From Puniceicoccales bacterium (GTDB lineage Bacteria > Verrucomicrobiota > Verrucomicrobiia > Opitutales > LL51), in assembly GCA_031283585.1 (NCBI GenBank), contig JAITBP010000011.1, positions 1 to 32,000 of the forward strand: DNA of 32,000 bases, written 5' to 3'. The notes beneath the pieces were generated by a model. That model was not told the origin of the DNA and made no database searches. It saw only the letters and a program-made list of their open reading frames with translations. Positions 3,872 through 27,451 of the stretch are shown piece after piece. A program made the translations under genes and the position numbers. Numbering within the stretch: position 1 is the stretch's first letter; the number at the start of each line of letters is the position of its first letter.

Positions 3872-3941
3872 CGGTATGAGGATGTTAGGTGATCACTTAG
3901 ATCTTTAAAAGCCATATAATTTGATTAGCATTCAAATCACC

Positions 3942-5933
3942 ATGGGTATCATAAGTTTTCTCAGATCATTATTATCAAGCAGTGTTGCTGCGACTAATCT
4001 CCTAACTAAAATTCCAAAAAGCGCGCTGCTGGAGAGCTCTATTGAAAATATTAAAGAATGGTATGAGTGTGGAAACTCCCAGGCAATTGTCCATGAAGCG
4101 ATCGGCGAGCTTGTTGAAGCAGGTGAGTTCAATGAATTAAATGACAGGTTTTTTAAAACACTTACCTTTGGAACCGGAGGTATCCGCGGGAGGACCATAT
4201 CTGGCTATATTACAAAGGCTGAAATTGGCAATGGATCGAAGATTTTACCAGAATTTCCTGCCATTGGCAGTGCCTGTCTGAATCACTTCAATGTCATTCG
4301 AGCTACCATTGCATTGCATGAATACTGCAAGAAAGTGGCGGTTTCCCAGGGCCGTGAAATGCTGTTGGTTGTGGCCTATGACGTGAGGTTTTTTTCAAAA
4401 TTATTTGCAGAAATAACGGCAAAAACCTGGGAATACCTTGGCGGTAAAGCAATGATTTTCGATGGACCCAGGTCCACTCCTCAGCTTAGTTTTTCCGTTA
4501 GATATTTCAGGGCCATGGCTGGTGTTGTTATTACCGCTAGCCACAATCCCTATTACGATAACGGTTATAAGGCCTATTTTGCAGATGGAGCCCAGGTAAT
4601 TGACCCTCAGGCTGCTGCCATAATAGAGAATTTTTCCAAGCTGAAGTTGGCGGATAGCATGGCCATATTTAAAGCCATCGAAGCCAAAGAGTTTACTAAT
4701 ACCGTATCCGGTAAAGACGAAGAGCGCTATGTCCAGGTGGTGAAGGATTCGGTTCTAGACAGAGCTTCATTGAAGAATTGTGCCAAAAAAGTTGTGTTTA
4801 CTCCATTGCATGGAACCGGTGGTGTGGTAGCTGTGCCTGCATTGCAATCTCTTGGAGTCGAAGTAATCTGTGTGGAAGAACAAATGAAGCAGGATCCTGG
4901 GTTCAGCACAGTAAAGTCTCCGAATCCGGAAAATTTCGATTCTCTAAAGCTGGCGATAGATAGGGCTAAAGCCACTGGAGCTGACCTGGTAATTGCCACT
5001 GATCCGGATGCCGATCGCATGGCCATTGCTGCCAAAAACAATGACGGAGAGTTTGAAAAATTTTCCGGAAATCTGACCGCATCGCTTTTGCTCGAATATC
5101 GGATTAGAAAAATGAAAGAGCTTGGAATTTTACCGAAGGATGGCTCCAAAAACGCCGTGGTGCTGAAAACGTTTGTAACCACACCGCTGGTAGAAAAAAT
5201 AGCCATTAGTCATGGATTGAAGTGTGTAAATACACTCACTGGGTTTAAATGGATTGGTAGTAAAATCAACAACTATGCGCTGGGTTTAATGGAAAAGGTT
5301 GGTAATGTCCACGATGGTTATGACGATATCGAACTGGATGAAAGAAGAAAGCTTCTGCTCCAGCATAGCCAATTTTGTATCTTTGGCTGCGAAGAGAGCT
5401 ACGGTTGTCTAGCCAGCGATTTGGTCCGAGATAAGGATGCCAATGCCGCCGCAGCGATGGTCTGTGAAATGCTGGCCGAGCTGGACAAAAAGTCCATAAC
5501 ACTGATGGACTTTCGTATGGAAATTTATTCTACCTATGGCTACTATGACGACACATTGTTGAATATATATTATGAAGGCGCCAGCGGTGTAGCCAGGATT
5601 AAGAATATTTTGAGCTCCTATAGAAAAAATCCGCCGGAAACGGTGGCTGGCCAGAAGGTTTTAAAGATCCAGGATTTCCTGAATGATCCTATCCTAGATG
5701 CGGACGGTTGTCATGTACCCAGGGAGGATTTTCTATTTCTAGAGCTGGAAAATGGCGATACCTATGCGGTGCGCGGAAGCGGTACCGAGCCGAAAATAAA
5801 ATTTTATATATTTTGCCATGGGGAAGGTGCAGGTTATGGAACCGAAATCGATGTCGTTGGCAAAATAAAATCTAGGCTCGATGCCCTGAAGGGTTTTTTA
5901 GAGGCCGATGCAGAAGTCCGTTCGGCTGGTTAA
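3942..5933 (+). CDS. Phosphoglucomutase/phosphomannomutase-family phospho-sugar mutase (alpha-D-phosphohexomutase)
   Basis: Motifs seen: TFGTGGIRG; active-site phosphoserine loop ITASHNPYYDNGYKAY; Mg-binding loop ATDPDADRMA; sugar-binding loop GCEESYG; C-terminal phosphate-binding RGSGTEPKIKFY. The start is uncertain (TTG 3921 or ATG 3942). Either gives a Ser-rich N-terminal extension of about 35 aa compared with PgcA-type enzymes as I remember them. Confidence 0.9.
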   Translation: MGIISFLRSLLSSSVAATNLLTKIPKSALLESSIENIKEWYECGNSQAIVHEAIGELVEAGEFNELNDRFFKTLTFGTGGIRGRTISGYITKAEIGNGSKILPEFPAIGSACLNHFNVIRATIALHEYCKKVAVSQGREMLLVVAYDVRFFSKLFAEITAKTWEYLGGKAMIFDGPRSTPQLSFSVRYFRAMAGVVITASHNPYYDNGYKAYFADGAQVIDPQAAAIIENFSKLKLADSMAIFKAIEAKEFTNTVSGKDEERYVQVVKDSVLDRASLKNCAKKVVFTPLHGTGGVVAVPALQSLGVEVICVEEQMKQDPGFSTVKSPNPENFDSLKLAIDRAKATGADLVIATDPDADRMAIAAKNNDGEFEKFSGNLTASLLLEYRIRKMKELGILPKDGSKNAVVLKTFVTTPLVEKIAISHGLKCVNTLTGFKWIGSKINNYALGLMEKVGNVHDGYDDIELDERRKLLLQHSQFCIFGCEESYGCLASDLVRDKDANAAAAMVCEMLAELDKKSITLMDFRMEIYSTYGYYDDTLLNIYYEGASGVARIKNILSSYRKNPPETVAGQKVLKIQDFLNDPILDADGCHVPREDFLFLELENGDTYAVRGSGTEPKIKFYIFCHGEGAGYGTEIDVVGKIKSRLDALKGFLEADAEVRSAG

Positions 5934-26086: not shown

Positions 26087-27451
26087 CTATATGGTGTTTG
26101 CTGAAAGGCTTTGTTCCGACAATGGCGTCATTTTACCGTCCTTGAACAGAGTGATTTGGTTTGTACTTTCCGACACGGTGATTGCCAGGCTGTTGGAAAC
26201 AAGCGATATGATTGCTGCGGCTGCATGTCGAGTTCCCAGGCCGCTTGGCATCTGGATCTTATGGTTGTTTGGCGCCTGTATTAATGTGCCGGCCGATTCT
26301 ATGACGCCATCGCCCCGGACAATAAATGCGCCATCTATGGATGAAAATTCTTTCACCGTTTCAGCCATAAACGGGTTCAGAATATTCCTTTCATCCTCTT
26401 TGTACCCAAAGAACGGGTTCAGAACCAGTTGCTTAGTAAACGGTCTTATTTTCTCTATATCTCCCAAAACAAATAGACAGCCAACGGGTTTCCCCTCTCG
26501 ACCTTCTATGGAAATATCGCCAACTATGGCCAGTAACCGCTCAAGGACTTCAGGTCTAATGCCATCATGCAGAAACATTTTCCCATTGGTCACCGATGAA
26601 CTGAATTCTTTGGCTATATCTATGATAGATATGGTATCAAAAAGATTACTTTTGGTTATACCGGAGATGCAGCATATCTTTTCATCGCCTTGGATTAATC
26701 CTCGGGTTAACCCTATTATTATCGCGCTTCTCAATTGAGCCAACCTGTGAGATGAAAAAGATTGCACAAAAATCACATTGTTAGAGAGACTTGGCCGAAC
26801 CGAACCGGCAGTTGTTTTCTGTGTAACAAACAATATCTTCAATTCATTGAACTTGTCCATGCCAGGGTAGTAATCGCCGGTTATGACATCATCGAAGATC
26901 ATTACGGCAGAACACCTGGCGGCGGTGGCTATCTGTTTGGCTTTATTGAAAATTAGGTTATTGAATTTCGTTTCACCGAGATTTTCGGTGGGCTTACTTT
27001 TCCCAAATATCTTGCCTATTTCCGATCTAAACGCGGACAGAGAGGATTGGTTCTGTAAATTATTTATCGTGGATTGATCCTGTAACATTCTTGCTAGCGT
27101 AGCCAATGTGCTCAGGTATAAGCCTTCACCTTCGGCTGATAGCAACAAAAACAATATTTTTATCTGTTTATAACTCGATGAATTGTCATAGGACAGACCA
27201 TTGGGGCAGCGGCCGATGGCAAAAACATATGGTTTTGTCATCTTCAATTTAGCATGGGGCATGGCTATGCCGTCACCCAGATAGGTTGTTATGGTCTTTT
27301 CAGAATCTAGAATGCGTTGAAGGATTTCATTGTCATCGCCGGAGGATTTTGGAAGATTGCATATTTTCAAAAGCTCGACAATGGCACCATTGAATGTCTT
27401 GCTTTTGATATCAATAATCCTGTCCTTTGCTAGAAACCTGTGTAGATGCAT
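26087..27451 (-). CDS. PTS-EIIA(Ntr)-like / pyruvate-kinase-C-like / diadenylate cyclase (DAC, DisA_N) fusion protein
   Basis: The N-terminal ~145 aa are EIIA type 2-like, with TYLGDGIAMPHAKL (phosphorylatable His context) and KILFLLLSAEG. The middle region reads AKQIATAARCSAVMIFDD...LKILFVTQ...GDEKICCISG. The C-terminal DAC domain reads GREGKPVGCLFVLGD...SSIDGAFIVRGDG...GLGTRHAAAAIIS...LAITVSESTNQITLFKDG. Confidence 0.75.
   Translation of the reverse strand: MHLHRFLAKDRIIDIKSKTFNGAIVELLKICNLPKSSGDDNEILQRILDSEKTITTYLGDGIAMPHAKLKMTKPYVFAIGRCPNGLSYDNSSSYKQIKILFLLLSAEGEGLYLSTLATLARMLQDQSTINNLQNQSSLSAFRSEIGKIFGKSKPTENLGETKFNNLIFNKAKQIATAARCSAVMIFDDVITGDYYPGMDKFNELKILFVTQKTTAGSVRPSLSNNVIFVQSFSSHRLAQLRSAIIIGLTRGLIQGDEKICCISGITKSNLFDTISIIDIAKEFSSSVTNGKMFLHDGIRPEVLERLLAIVGDISIEGREGKPVGCLFVLGDIEKIRPFTKQLVLNPFFGYKEDERNILNPFMAETVKEFSSIDGAFIVRGDGVIESAGTLIQAPNNHKIQMPSGLGTRHAAAAIISLVSNSLAITVSESTNQITLFKDGKMTPLSEQSLSANTI

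Follow-up and report, generated by a model that had tools for sequence, protein, structure and literature searches.

An EIIA-fused, DacZ-like diadenylate cyclase from a Puniceicoccales bacterium with an altered EIIA active site

Introduction

The 32-kb stretch of Puniceicoccales DNA analysed here (hereafter, the window) encodes a 454-residue protein in which a PTS EIIA domain, a pyruvate kinase-like domain and a diadenylate cyclase (DAC) domain seem to be joined in a single chain, and the question that it raises is whether such a protein makes c-di-AMP and, if so, whether synthesis answers to the PTS. K+ homeostasis is governed by PTS(Ntr) in proteobacteria and by c-di-AMP in Firmicutes. To our knowledge, the mechanisms that control c-di-AMP synthesis have been worked out only in Firmicute and Actinobacterial enzymes: CdaA, with its partners CdaR and GlmM, and DisA, with DNA and RadA. 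EIIA(Ntr) control of K+ uptake has been reviewed (bioRxiv 10.1101/2023.07.05.547876).

Results

A complete three-domain cyclase

A Pfam profile search of the 454-residue cyclase returns three domains, in the order PTS_EIIA_2, DacZ_P and DAC, each above its GA threshold (Table 1) and each with a fold that agrees, so the three domain calls made in a preliminary description of this DNA were right. The N-terminus lines up with the family consensus (MRLDRYIAKSRIID...), so the start codon is correct, and motifs were placed by translation of the window. An AlphaFold model of the full protein has a mean pLDDT of 79. Beside the self-match at 100%, the nearest public protein is 79% identical and is named 'diadenylate cyclase [Puniceicoccales bacterium]'.

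Table 1. Features of the cyclase gene and its neighbours in the window
Feature	Position	Strand	Basis
EIIA + DacZ_P + DAC diadenylate cyclase, complete CDS	26087..27451	-	ATG start, 454 aa; ORF list and Pfam
PTS_EIIA_2 domain (residues 15-143)	27023..27409	-	Pfam E 1.5e-19, 70.9 bits vs GA 27
Ser50 codon, position of PtsN Arg57	27302..27304	-	numbering checked on E. coli PtsN
His66 codon, equivalent of phospho-acceptor His73 of E. coli PtsN	27254..27256	-	alignment with PtsN
Tyr112 codon, position of PtsN His120	27116..27118	-	alignment with E. coli PtsN
DacZ_P domain (residues 163-282), pyruvate-kinase C-terminal-like alpha/beta fold	26606..26965	-	PF21755 E 1.7e-7, 31.4 bits vs GA 27.4
DAC (DisA_N, PF02457) catalytic domain (residues 314-441)	26129..26512	-	Pfam E 7.8e-21, 74.3 bits vs GA 27
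DGA motif (residues 373-375)	26327..26335	-	translation; D and G in 120/120, A in 118/120 homologues
RHA (residues 408-410) at the RHR position	26222..26230	-	translation; R in 119/120, H in 120/120, A in 119/120 homologues
GmhA-like SIS protein gene	upstream of cyclase	-	TIGR00441 147.5 bits, below the cut-off of 209
YbeY gene	downstream of cyclase, convergent		77.8 bits vs cut-off 45

The DacZ-like core

PF21755 lies directly upstream of the DAC domain, which is the arrangement of a DacZ-like core. When residues 158-295 were modelled separately (pLDDT 82, pTM 0.76), the top 50 Foldseek matches in the PDB were all pyruvate kinases, with TM about 0.6 on the query over ~125 aligned columns, and the DacZ_P domain of one relative (P0137) matches PK_C weakly (E 2.3e-4). 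The Pfam DacZ_P match and this run of 50/50 pyruvate kinases bear out the connection of the middle region to pyruvate-kinase-C and DacZ that had been drawn earlier; in pyruvate kinase, allosteric effectors are known to act at the PK_C fold (PMC6741144).

Archaeal DacZ/CdaZ proteins (Haloferax volcanii, Methanocaldococcus jannaschii) have the same core, DacZ_P (PK_C-like) followed by DAC, whereas the protein described here is bacterial, carries an extra EIIA domain of 150 residues, has no mscS neighbour and is 23-25% identical to them. It matches the DacZ model NF041371 over residues 237-441 only, with 103.5 bits against a cut-off of 430, and is thus related to DacZ equivalogs without being one of them. 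Sequence and profile searches of the PDB returned no solved DacZ-type structure.

The DAC domain and its RHA motif

The match to PF02457 spans profile positions 3-119 of 119, and the C-terminal domain of the model matches CdaA, DacA and DisA with a Foldseek probability of 1.00 and TM of 0.6-0.67 normalised to the target. CdaA, DisA and CdaS share with it the DAC fold, DGA and the T-R-H motif, but the 454-residue cyclase has no transmembrane, HhH or autoinhibitory-helix module and no CdaR/GlmM partner genes, and it lacks the second Arg found in RHR. In the alignment, GTRHAAA stands opposite GTRHRAA of the L. monocytogenes, S. aureus and B. subtilis CdaA chains, and the residues that follow the motif are SEST, against SEET in CdaA.

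The preliminary description took RHA as a possible mark of an altered cyclase, a suspicion that does not survive comparison with relatives: Ala is the rule among the close homologues (Table 1), and the third motif residue is free (A, T, Q, R, H, E, V, M and others) in a set of 150 sequences that represent the DacZ_P+DAC clade. Haladaptatus DacZ proteins, which at 442-450 bits lie above the NF041371 equivalog cut-off, have RHH and S-E-S-D, and so have in common with our protein an RHx with a non-Arg third residue and an SxS[TD] stretch. Since the third residue is unconserved in the DacZ-like branch, and is His in DacZ equivalogs, a full RHR does not define that branch; judged from natural variation alone, the second Arg would appear to be dispensable. 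The catalytic core (DGA, R408 and H409) is essentially invariant in the 120 homologues and under strong constraint, and DAC is the most conserved domain, with 63-94% identity to homologues compared to 41-67% for the EIIA domain. For annotation, this makes 'RHR' unfit as a strict test of activity in DacZ-type DAC domains.

The EIIA domain and its active site

In a Foldseek search, the N-terminal domain of the AlphaFold model matches EIIA(Ntr) crystal structures with TM of 0.78-0.83 normalised to the target (best, 2a0j and 1a6j at 0.82-0.83; 3urr, about 0.8), and the cyclase family profile finds PDB PtsN with an E-value of 1.3e-9. Against the equivalog model of PtsN (TIGR01419) and the FruA model, the protein scores 44.2 and 48 bits, below the respective cut-offs of 138.7 and 103.5. 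The fold and the G-x-x-[IV]-A-x-P-H signature are common to the cyclase, EIIA(Ntr)/PtsN and EIIA(Mtl/Fru); PtsN is a free regulator, whereas here EIIA is a domain inside an enzyme.

His66 sits in GDGIAMPHAKL, which keeps the A-x-P-H context of PTS EIIA type 2, and its position is occupied by His in 105 and by Tyr in 15 of the 120 close homologues; more widely, 72/79 EIIA-bearing cluster representatives have the phospho-His. PtsN Arg57 and the second His (His120) are reported to have catalytic roles in structural work on EIIA(Ntr) and EIIA(Mtl). The equivalents of both are missing from the 454-residue cyclase when it is aligned with PtsN, Ser50 and Tyr112 standing in their places, and the earlier claim of a retained phosphorylatable His context therefore holds for His66 and fails for these two residues. 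The position of Ser50, 16 residues before His66, is Arg in 113/120 close homologues, and among the 120 only this cyclase and its three nearest relatives (P0002-P0004) have Ser; in the wider set the Arg57 equivalent is present in 72/79 EIIA-bearing representatives. The position of Tyr112 is Tyr in all 120 close homologues and His in 48/79 wider representatives, with the His120 equivalent absent from the whole Opitutales/Puniceicoccales branch. The Arg/His/His triad of PtsN is complete in 48/79 of the EIIA-bearing representatives.

The sister clade, next out from the 454-residue cyclase, has Tyr in place of the phospho-His. Taken with Ser50 in place of Arg, this suggests that in this lineage the phospho-switch of EIIA is likely weakened or being replaced, with the domain still under selection. 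EIIA and DAC identities are 0.70/0.91 for the Tyr-for-His homologues and 0.56/0.77 for canonical members; because these 15 of 120 homologues keep an EIIA domain as conserved as in canonical members, EIIA would seem to have a phosphorylation-independent role. Relaxed selection on EIIA in the Ser and Tyr clades was considered and rejected, as their EIIA/DAC identity ratios resemble those of canonical clades.

Genomic setting and PTS partners

As previously described, the gene lies between gmhA and ybeY with neither cdaR nor glmM adjacent, with the qualification that the gmhA match falls below its cut-off (Table 1); the sole PGM-family gene in the window (3921-5933) is far below the GlmM cut-offs. 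None of the window neighbours travels with the cyclase gene across 80 related loci; gene order is not conserved in relatives, so the position between gmhA and ybeY says nothing about function. In relatives, the cyclase gene usually follows a nuoA-like gene and precedes trpA, with dnaG and rpoD also usual neighbours; these are housekeeping genes, and the conserved neighbourhood was dropped as a functional clue. PTS genes are not among the conserved neighbours of the cyclase in the related loci.

Pfam searches of the 29 ORFs in the 32-kb window found no PTS genes, no other DACs and no phosphodiesterases, and Enzyme I was likewise not found in the window. Rfam matches in the window are two tRNAs only, with no c-di-AMP riboswitch, and promoter and terminator scans around the cyclase gene are at background level. 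A tblastn search with E. coli PtsI gave no match in 1.34 Mb of Opitutia DNA which, at no more than 21 kb per genome, is too small a sample to decide the presence of Enzyme I. HPr does exist in the lineage as a phosphodonor: in a related locus (L079), 8 kb separate the cyclase from an HPr gene that has the His15 and Ser46 contexts, Coraliomargarita and Puniceicoccaceae have homologues annotated as HPr at 70-91% identity, and one MAG, GCA_018402305.1, holds both HPr (L083) and a three-domain cyclase (L044).

Distribution and naming of the family

Relatives of the 454-residue cyclase are encoded in at least 568 species-level genomes; the best 80 of these relatives are all full-length three-domain proteins, nearly all labelled class Opitutia, and the 120 closest database homologues all have the same architecture. 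The EIIA-fused cyclase is a lineage-wide gene and the standard type in class Opitutia. Public databases call the homologues diadenylate cyclase and Pfam has a dedicated DacZ_P model, with many family proteins mislabelled 'PTS sugar transporter subunit IIA'. The architecture, whose N-terminal modules the preliminary description set apart from the well-studied c-di-AMP synthases, is common and already catalogued (databases, Pfam DacZ_P, 'DacD'). That description had counted a common and already characterised architecture against its own reading; the first half of this applies, and literature searches found no biochemical assay of any EIIA+DacZ_P+DAC protein.

The 'DacD' classification is said to come from Corrigan and Gründling in 2013, the class reportedly being PTS_EIIA_2 fused to DAC. 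With 'DacD', as its definition is reported, our protein shares the taxon (Opitutia/Verrucomicrobiota) and the DAC domain, its architecture fits the reported fusion, and it differs in having Ser at the Arg57-equivalent position. A 2019 paper lists 'DacD' as a bacterial class whose representatives, from Lacunisphaera, Puniceicoccaceae, Coraliomargarita and Opitutae, are all Opitutae (PMC6741144). A human-gut census counts 19 Verrucomicrobiota species in the column for DacZ-class DAC alone (PMC12901056), consistent with the DacZ-class DAC being the sole cyclase in those species. This kind of protein is already known, with an RHA motif that is normal for its branch, and the 454-residue cyclase is an added member.

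A second, independent fusion runs in the reverse order: P0171, found in two assemblies, is DacZ_P-DAC-EIIA and keeps both Arg and His, and this independent fusion in the opposite order supports a functional coupling of EIIA and cyclase. In a neighbour-joining tree of DAC domains, built to ask whether EIIA was gained only once but too rough for that and with some entries that are fragments, EIIA-bearing and two-domain sequences are interleaved.

Discussion

The window gene is most likely an Opitutia-type c-di-AMP synthase, active and probably housekeeping. From the sequence comparisons, we consider it somewhat probable that the protein is a DacZ-like cyclase core with an N-terminal EIIA domain, catalytically competent, in a family where EIIA exerts phospho-control that is weakened here; catalysis, EIIA phosphorylation and the direction of regulation are what we infer in this reading. 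As in established DAC enzymes, two DAC domains would face each other as a head-to-head pair and make c-di-AMP by condensation of two ATP, with the N-terminal domains acting as brakes or accelerators of the cyclase, and DacZ_P probably mediating oligomerisation and/or binding a metabolite. Across the wider family, the conserved His of EIIA is probably phosphorylated by HPr/NPr~P, which would tie c-di-AMP output to the state of a PEP-dependent phosphorelay. In the 454-residue cyclase, which keeps His66 and has Ser for Arg, this switch is likely weakened or in replacement. Control of c-di-AMP by PTS-type phosphorylation or by a metabolite can reasonably be proposed from what the protein contains.

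A DAC domain left dead or altered by the change from RHR to RHA, in a protein that serves as a c-di-AMP/ATP sensor or regulator, is very improbable. The second Arg is missing, SEST replaces the SEET of CdaA, and in M. tuberculosis DisA changing RHR to AAA abolishes activity (PMC3328451), but there the second Arg was not changed alone, and the near-uniform Ala of the family, the free third position across the DacZ-like clade and the retention of D, G, A, R and H in the most conserved domain all speak against a dead enzyme. So do the RHH and S-E-S-D of DacZ-equivalog proteins, given that Haloferax DacZ is active and essential and that DacZ/CdaZ proteins as a class are active enzymes (PMC6741144), as well as the gut Verrucomicrobiota species for which DacZ is apparently the only DAC class that they carry (PMC12901056). 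We attach equally little weight to a product, substrate or metal regime different from that of canonical DACs, brought about by clade-specific active-site differences. The RHx and SxST signatures of the clade point that way, as does the strict Mn dependence of Haloferax DacZ, unlike bacterial DACs, but characterised DacZ/CdaZ enzymes make c-di-AMP (PMC6741144), and the DGA context, with its adenine/ribose contacts, is conserved.

A weightier alternative, though one we still regard as unlikely, concerns the EIIA domain: the cyclase would be active and EIIA would be a phosphorylation-independent module, i.e., a dimerisation scaffold, a partner dock or a ligand pocket, with regulation stemming not from the PTS but from that role and from a metabolite on the pyruvate-kinase-C-like domain. 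It draws on Ser and Tyr at the Arg57 and His120 positions, on a nearest outgroup clade that has Tyr for the phospho-His and still a well-conserved EIIA, on the lack of PTS genes in the window and in conserved synteny, and on the allosteric effector site known for the PK_C fold (PMC6741144). Yet His66 is kept here and in 105 of the 120 close relatives, the wider representatives have Arg and His in 72/79 each and the full PtsN-like triad in 48/79, HPr is found in related genomes, and the reverse-order fusion P0171 also keeps Arg and His. We continue to favour phospho-control across the family, weakened in this lineage.

In their different phyla, PTS(Ntr) and c-di-AMP both rank as major K+/osmotic regulators; the fusion would bring two such controls together in a single protein, and it suggests that they can form one pathway. 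We tentatively suggest, as a possibility short of an even chance, that c-di-AMP synthesis in Opitutia is gated by PTS phosphotransfer to the built-in EIIA domain and that in the host-associated Puniceicoccales lineage to which the window belongs the switch is being rewired to a phosphorylation-independent form. If true, it would be the first case of a PEP-dependent phosphorelay wired directly to a cyclic-dinucleotide synthase, and, with Ser for Arg in this protein and Tyr for His in the sister clade, the variants would form a natural gradation of 'on-switch', 'crippled' and 'locked' forms. The EIIA-fused cyclase predicts a simple, testable input to c-di-AMP synthesis in this phylum, the PTS phosphorylation state.

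Domain architecture and distribution of the cyclase

We find that the preliminary description of this protein, as an EIIA domain followed by a pyruvate kinase C-terminal (PK_C)-like domain and a diadenylate cyclase (DAC) domain, is right in all parts, since Pfam assignments, a translation check that confirms the quoted motifs at their positions, and superpositions of structural models all support it. In an AlphaFold model of the full protein (pLDDT 79, 33 homologues as input), the N-terminal domain superposes with EIIA(Ntr) structures (TM ≈0.8) and the C-terminal domain with CdaA, DacA and DisA. Residues 158-295, modelled separately (pLDDT 82), return pyruvate kinases as 50 of the 50 best PDB matches (≈125 aligned columns, TM ≈0.6 on the query), and Pfam PK_C also matches the middle domain of one relative (E 2.3e-4). 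NCBIfam models for DacZ (103.5 bits, cut-off 430, residues 237-441), FruA-type IIA (48 bits, cut-off 103.5) and PtsN (44 bits, cut-off 138.7) match below threshold.

Coordinates of the cyclase gene, its domains and other features
Feature	Position	Strand	Evidence
Complete ORF, 454 aa	26087-27451	minus	ORF list
PTS_EIIA_2	residues 15-143	minus	Pfam E 1.5e-19, above gathering score
DacZ_P (PF21755)	residues 163-282	minus	Pfam 31.4 bits, gathering score 27.4
DAC	residues 314-441	minus	Pfam E 7.8e-21, above gathering score
GreA-type protein, 622 aa	28281-30149	plus	GreA N+C module at residues 466-616, ≈460-aa N-terminal extension
PGM/PMM-family protein, 670 aa	3921-5933	plus	126.6 vs 439 and 76 vs 447.55 (GlmM cut-offs)
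P0171, homologue of 480 aa	99-kb metagenomic contig		DacZ_P 20-139, DAC 169-294, PTS_EIIA_2 348-471

The architecture had been thought unusual; it is instead standard across a whole bacterial class and already catalogued. A search across 5.8 billion proteins gave 3099 matches, the best 120 of which are all ≈450 aa with EIIA and DAC calls, 118 of them with DacZ_P as well. Organisms named among these 120 are Puniceicoccales, Opitutales, Cerasicoccus, Rubellicoccus and Lentimonas. The source names, where given, are either "PTS sugar transporter subunit IIA" or "diadenylate cyclase", and the closest protein shares 79% identity. When genomes were scanned at one per species, at least 568 were found to encode a relative, with Puniceicoccales MAGs closest (53-55% identity); in the best 80, the relatives are all full-length and the labels nearly all Opitutia or unclassified Verrucomicrobiota. 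Two of these 80 loci (L047 and L048) are contigs with an Opitutia-type cyclase inside MAGs labelled Polaribacter and Zhongshania, probably through binning errors in public assemblies. A HMMER search with the DacZ_P+DAC portion, run against 1.84 billion cluster representatives, yields 1199 clusters at E ≤ 1e-3, of which 255 reach E ≤ 1e-30; 79 of the best 150 carry an EIIA domain and 59 are two-domain DacZ_P+DAC proteins, the named ones among the latter being from Planctomycetota (Anaerohalosphaeraceae among others).

Among other fusions, P0160 (WP_141731014.1, 680 aa, from the complete genome of Oligoflexus tunisiensis) has DHH and DHHA1 domains, a phosphodiesterase/nanoRNase-type module, upstream of DacZ_P and DAC, and may both make and degrade c-di-AMP within a single polypeptide.

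A PTS_EIIA_2-DAC fusion is the feature by which Corrigan and Gründling reportedly defined DacD in 2013. Braun et al. (2019; PMC6741144) treat DacZ and CdaZ as one family with bacterial members and with the pyruvate-kinase C-terminal fold as its N-terminal domain, and describe a bacterial class "DacD" in which every representative belongs to Opitutae. Galperin's 2023 census, as cited in PMC12901056, has 22 DAC families, and the citing paper reports that DacZ-class cyclases in the gut occur chiefly in Verrucomicrobiota, with 19 Verrucomicrobiota species in its DacZ-only column. Our literature search found no experimental work on any EIIA-DAC protein, and the window protein is a real, correctly described case of a known kind.

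The RHA motif and catalytic competence

At the RHR position of the DAC domain the protein has RHA (residues 408-410), its GTRHAAA aligning with GTRHRAA in CdaA crystal-structure sequences, and this variant had been proposed as a possible sign of an altered cyclase. Among the 120 closest homologues, A410 is kept in 119, R408 in 119 and H409 in 120, and the DGA motif is stable too (D373 and G374 in 120, A375 in 118); RHA is thus a fixed family signature and not the decay of a single gene. The third RHx residue in the best 150 DacZ_P+DAC clade representatives is A in 64, T in 15, Q in 12, R in 12, H in 8, E in 6, V in 6 and M in 5, with others making up the rest, and DAC domains of the DacZ type place no constraint on this position. 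Proteins annotated dacZ on two Haladaptatus megaplasmids score 449.8 and 441.8 bits, above the DacZ equivalog cut-off of 430, and both read GTRHHAAA. Within the protein, conservation is also highest in the DAC domain, at 91-94% identity to the nearest relatives versus 62-67% for EIIA. With Ala fixed, the third position free, RHH in DacZ equivalogs and DAC the best-conserved domain, RHA gives no ground for doubting catalysis, and the proposal is not supported, the variant being normal for the DacZ branch. Enzymatic activity is established for the DacZ/CdaZ class, and dacZ is essential in Haloferax (PMC6741144); the RHR-to-AAA triple change in M. tuberculosis DisA (PMC3328451) is uninformative on the last Arg alone.

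The Haladaptatus genes (L081, 1288-2091; L082, 1309-2112) lie on 540-600 kb replicons of two species, classed as plasmids in PLSDB. The genes are possibly second copies; alternatively, the replicons could be chromids. Just after the RHx helix, the DacZ clade has S-x-S-[TD] versus S-E-E-T in CdaA (window 26129-26200 and alignment), a second clade-specific difference in the active-site region that might have a bearing on why Haloferax DacZ is reported to depend strictly on Mn (PMC6741144).

The EIIA active site and evidence for its link to the cyclase

Alignment with E. coli MG1655 PtsN, with residues counted along it, equates Arg57, His73 and His120 with Ser50, His66 and Tyr112 of the window protein. 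Of 120 close homologues, 113 have Arg at position 50, where Ser is confined to the window protein and the three relatives nearest to it. At position 66, 105 have His and 15 have Tyr, and position 112 is Tyr throughout. The more diverse set of 79 EIIA-bearing cluster representatives has Arg in 72, His in 72 and the complete Arg/His/His triad in 48; these counts, with Tyr112 in 120/120, indicate that the ancestral EIIA was canonical and that the second His was lost in the Opitutales/Puniceicoccales branch. The Tyr66 proteins (P0005-P0016, P0018, P0028 and P0032; loci L001-L010), which read AMPYIRR and come from Puniceicoccales MAGs, form the clade lying closest to the window protein's own subclade and have an otherwise well-conserved EIIA; in the branch that includes the window the site is eroding by two different routes. 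By identity, EIIA is about as conserved relative to DAC in eroded-site members as in canonical ones, so the domain evidently keeps a function without strict need of the phospho-His.

P0171, found in two independent assemblies (also as P0401), is built in the opposite order, DacZ_P-DAC-EIIA, retains Arg and His, and is thus an independent fusion of EIIA and cyclase. One Puniceicoccaceae locus has, 8 kb away from its cyclase, an HPr-type gene encoding GIHARPA (His15) and GKSIMG (Ser46); homologues (70-91% identity) are widespread, with Coraliomargarita and Puniceicoccaceae named, and MAG GCA_018402305.1 contains both HPr (L083) and a cyclase of the three-domain type (L044). In 1.34 Mb of Opitutia DNA, a sample far too shallow to decide, tblastn with E. 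coli PtsI gave no Enzyme I match, and Pfam on the ORFs of the 32-kb window found no PTS genes aside from the cyclase's own EIIA.

Genomic context

The window consists of unremarkable chromosomal DNA, with thyA, lpxK, holA-like, DUF502, ybeY, gmhA-like SIS, comF-like, topA, murG, gatA, mnmA, proS, kdsD-like and ABC transporter genes and a long GreA-family gene. None of the window neighbours accompanies the cyclase in the 80 related loci compared, so gene position is uninformative on its function. Most Opitutales have other neighbours: a lone nuoA-like gene for a 126-aa membrane protein lies just upstream in the same orientation at 62 of these loci and trpA follows the cyclase at 38, an arrangement absent from the window. 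Rfam matches in the window are two tRNAs only, with no c-di-AMP riboswitch, and promoter and terminator scans around the gene stay at background level. The GreA-type protein resembles the long GreA fusions NF011309 and NF004969 (both below cut-off), and the PGM/PMM-family protein is unusually long and not adjacent to the cyclase.

Discussion

The protein combines a conserved DAC core of the DacZ type with two further domains, one PK_C-like and the other an EIIA whose phospho-acceptor site is conserved family-wide. We predict from its sequence that it is active in c-di-AMP synthesis, probably as the housekeeping enzyme, and that the two N-terminal domains would control DAC-DAC pairing. In canonical members, HPr/NPr~P would phosphorylate the EIIA His and thereby change activity; with Ser50, phosphotransfer in the window protein is probably inefficient, and in the Tyr66 sister clade it would be impossible, leaving those enzymes in the "unphosphorylated" state or dependent on other input. 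K+ uptake is regulated by c-di-AMP in Firmicutes. EIIA(Ntr) regulates it in proteobacteria (bioRxiv 10.1101/2023.07.05.547876), and an EIIA-DAC fusion plausibly merges these two modes of control. The features behind the apparent specialness of the protein, its architecture and its motif variant, are ordinary; possible PTS control of c-di-AMP synthesis is the remaining point of interest, and active-site variants of the EIIA switch occur naturally in this lineage.
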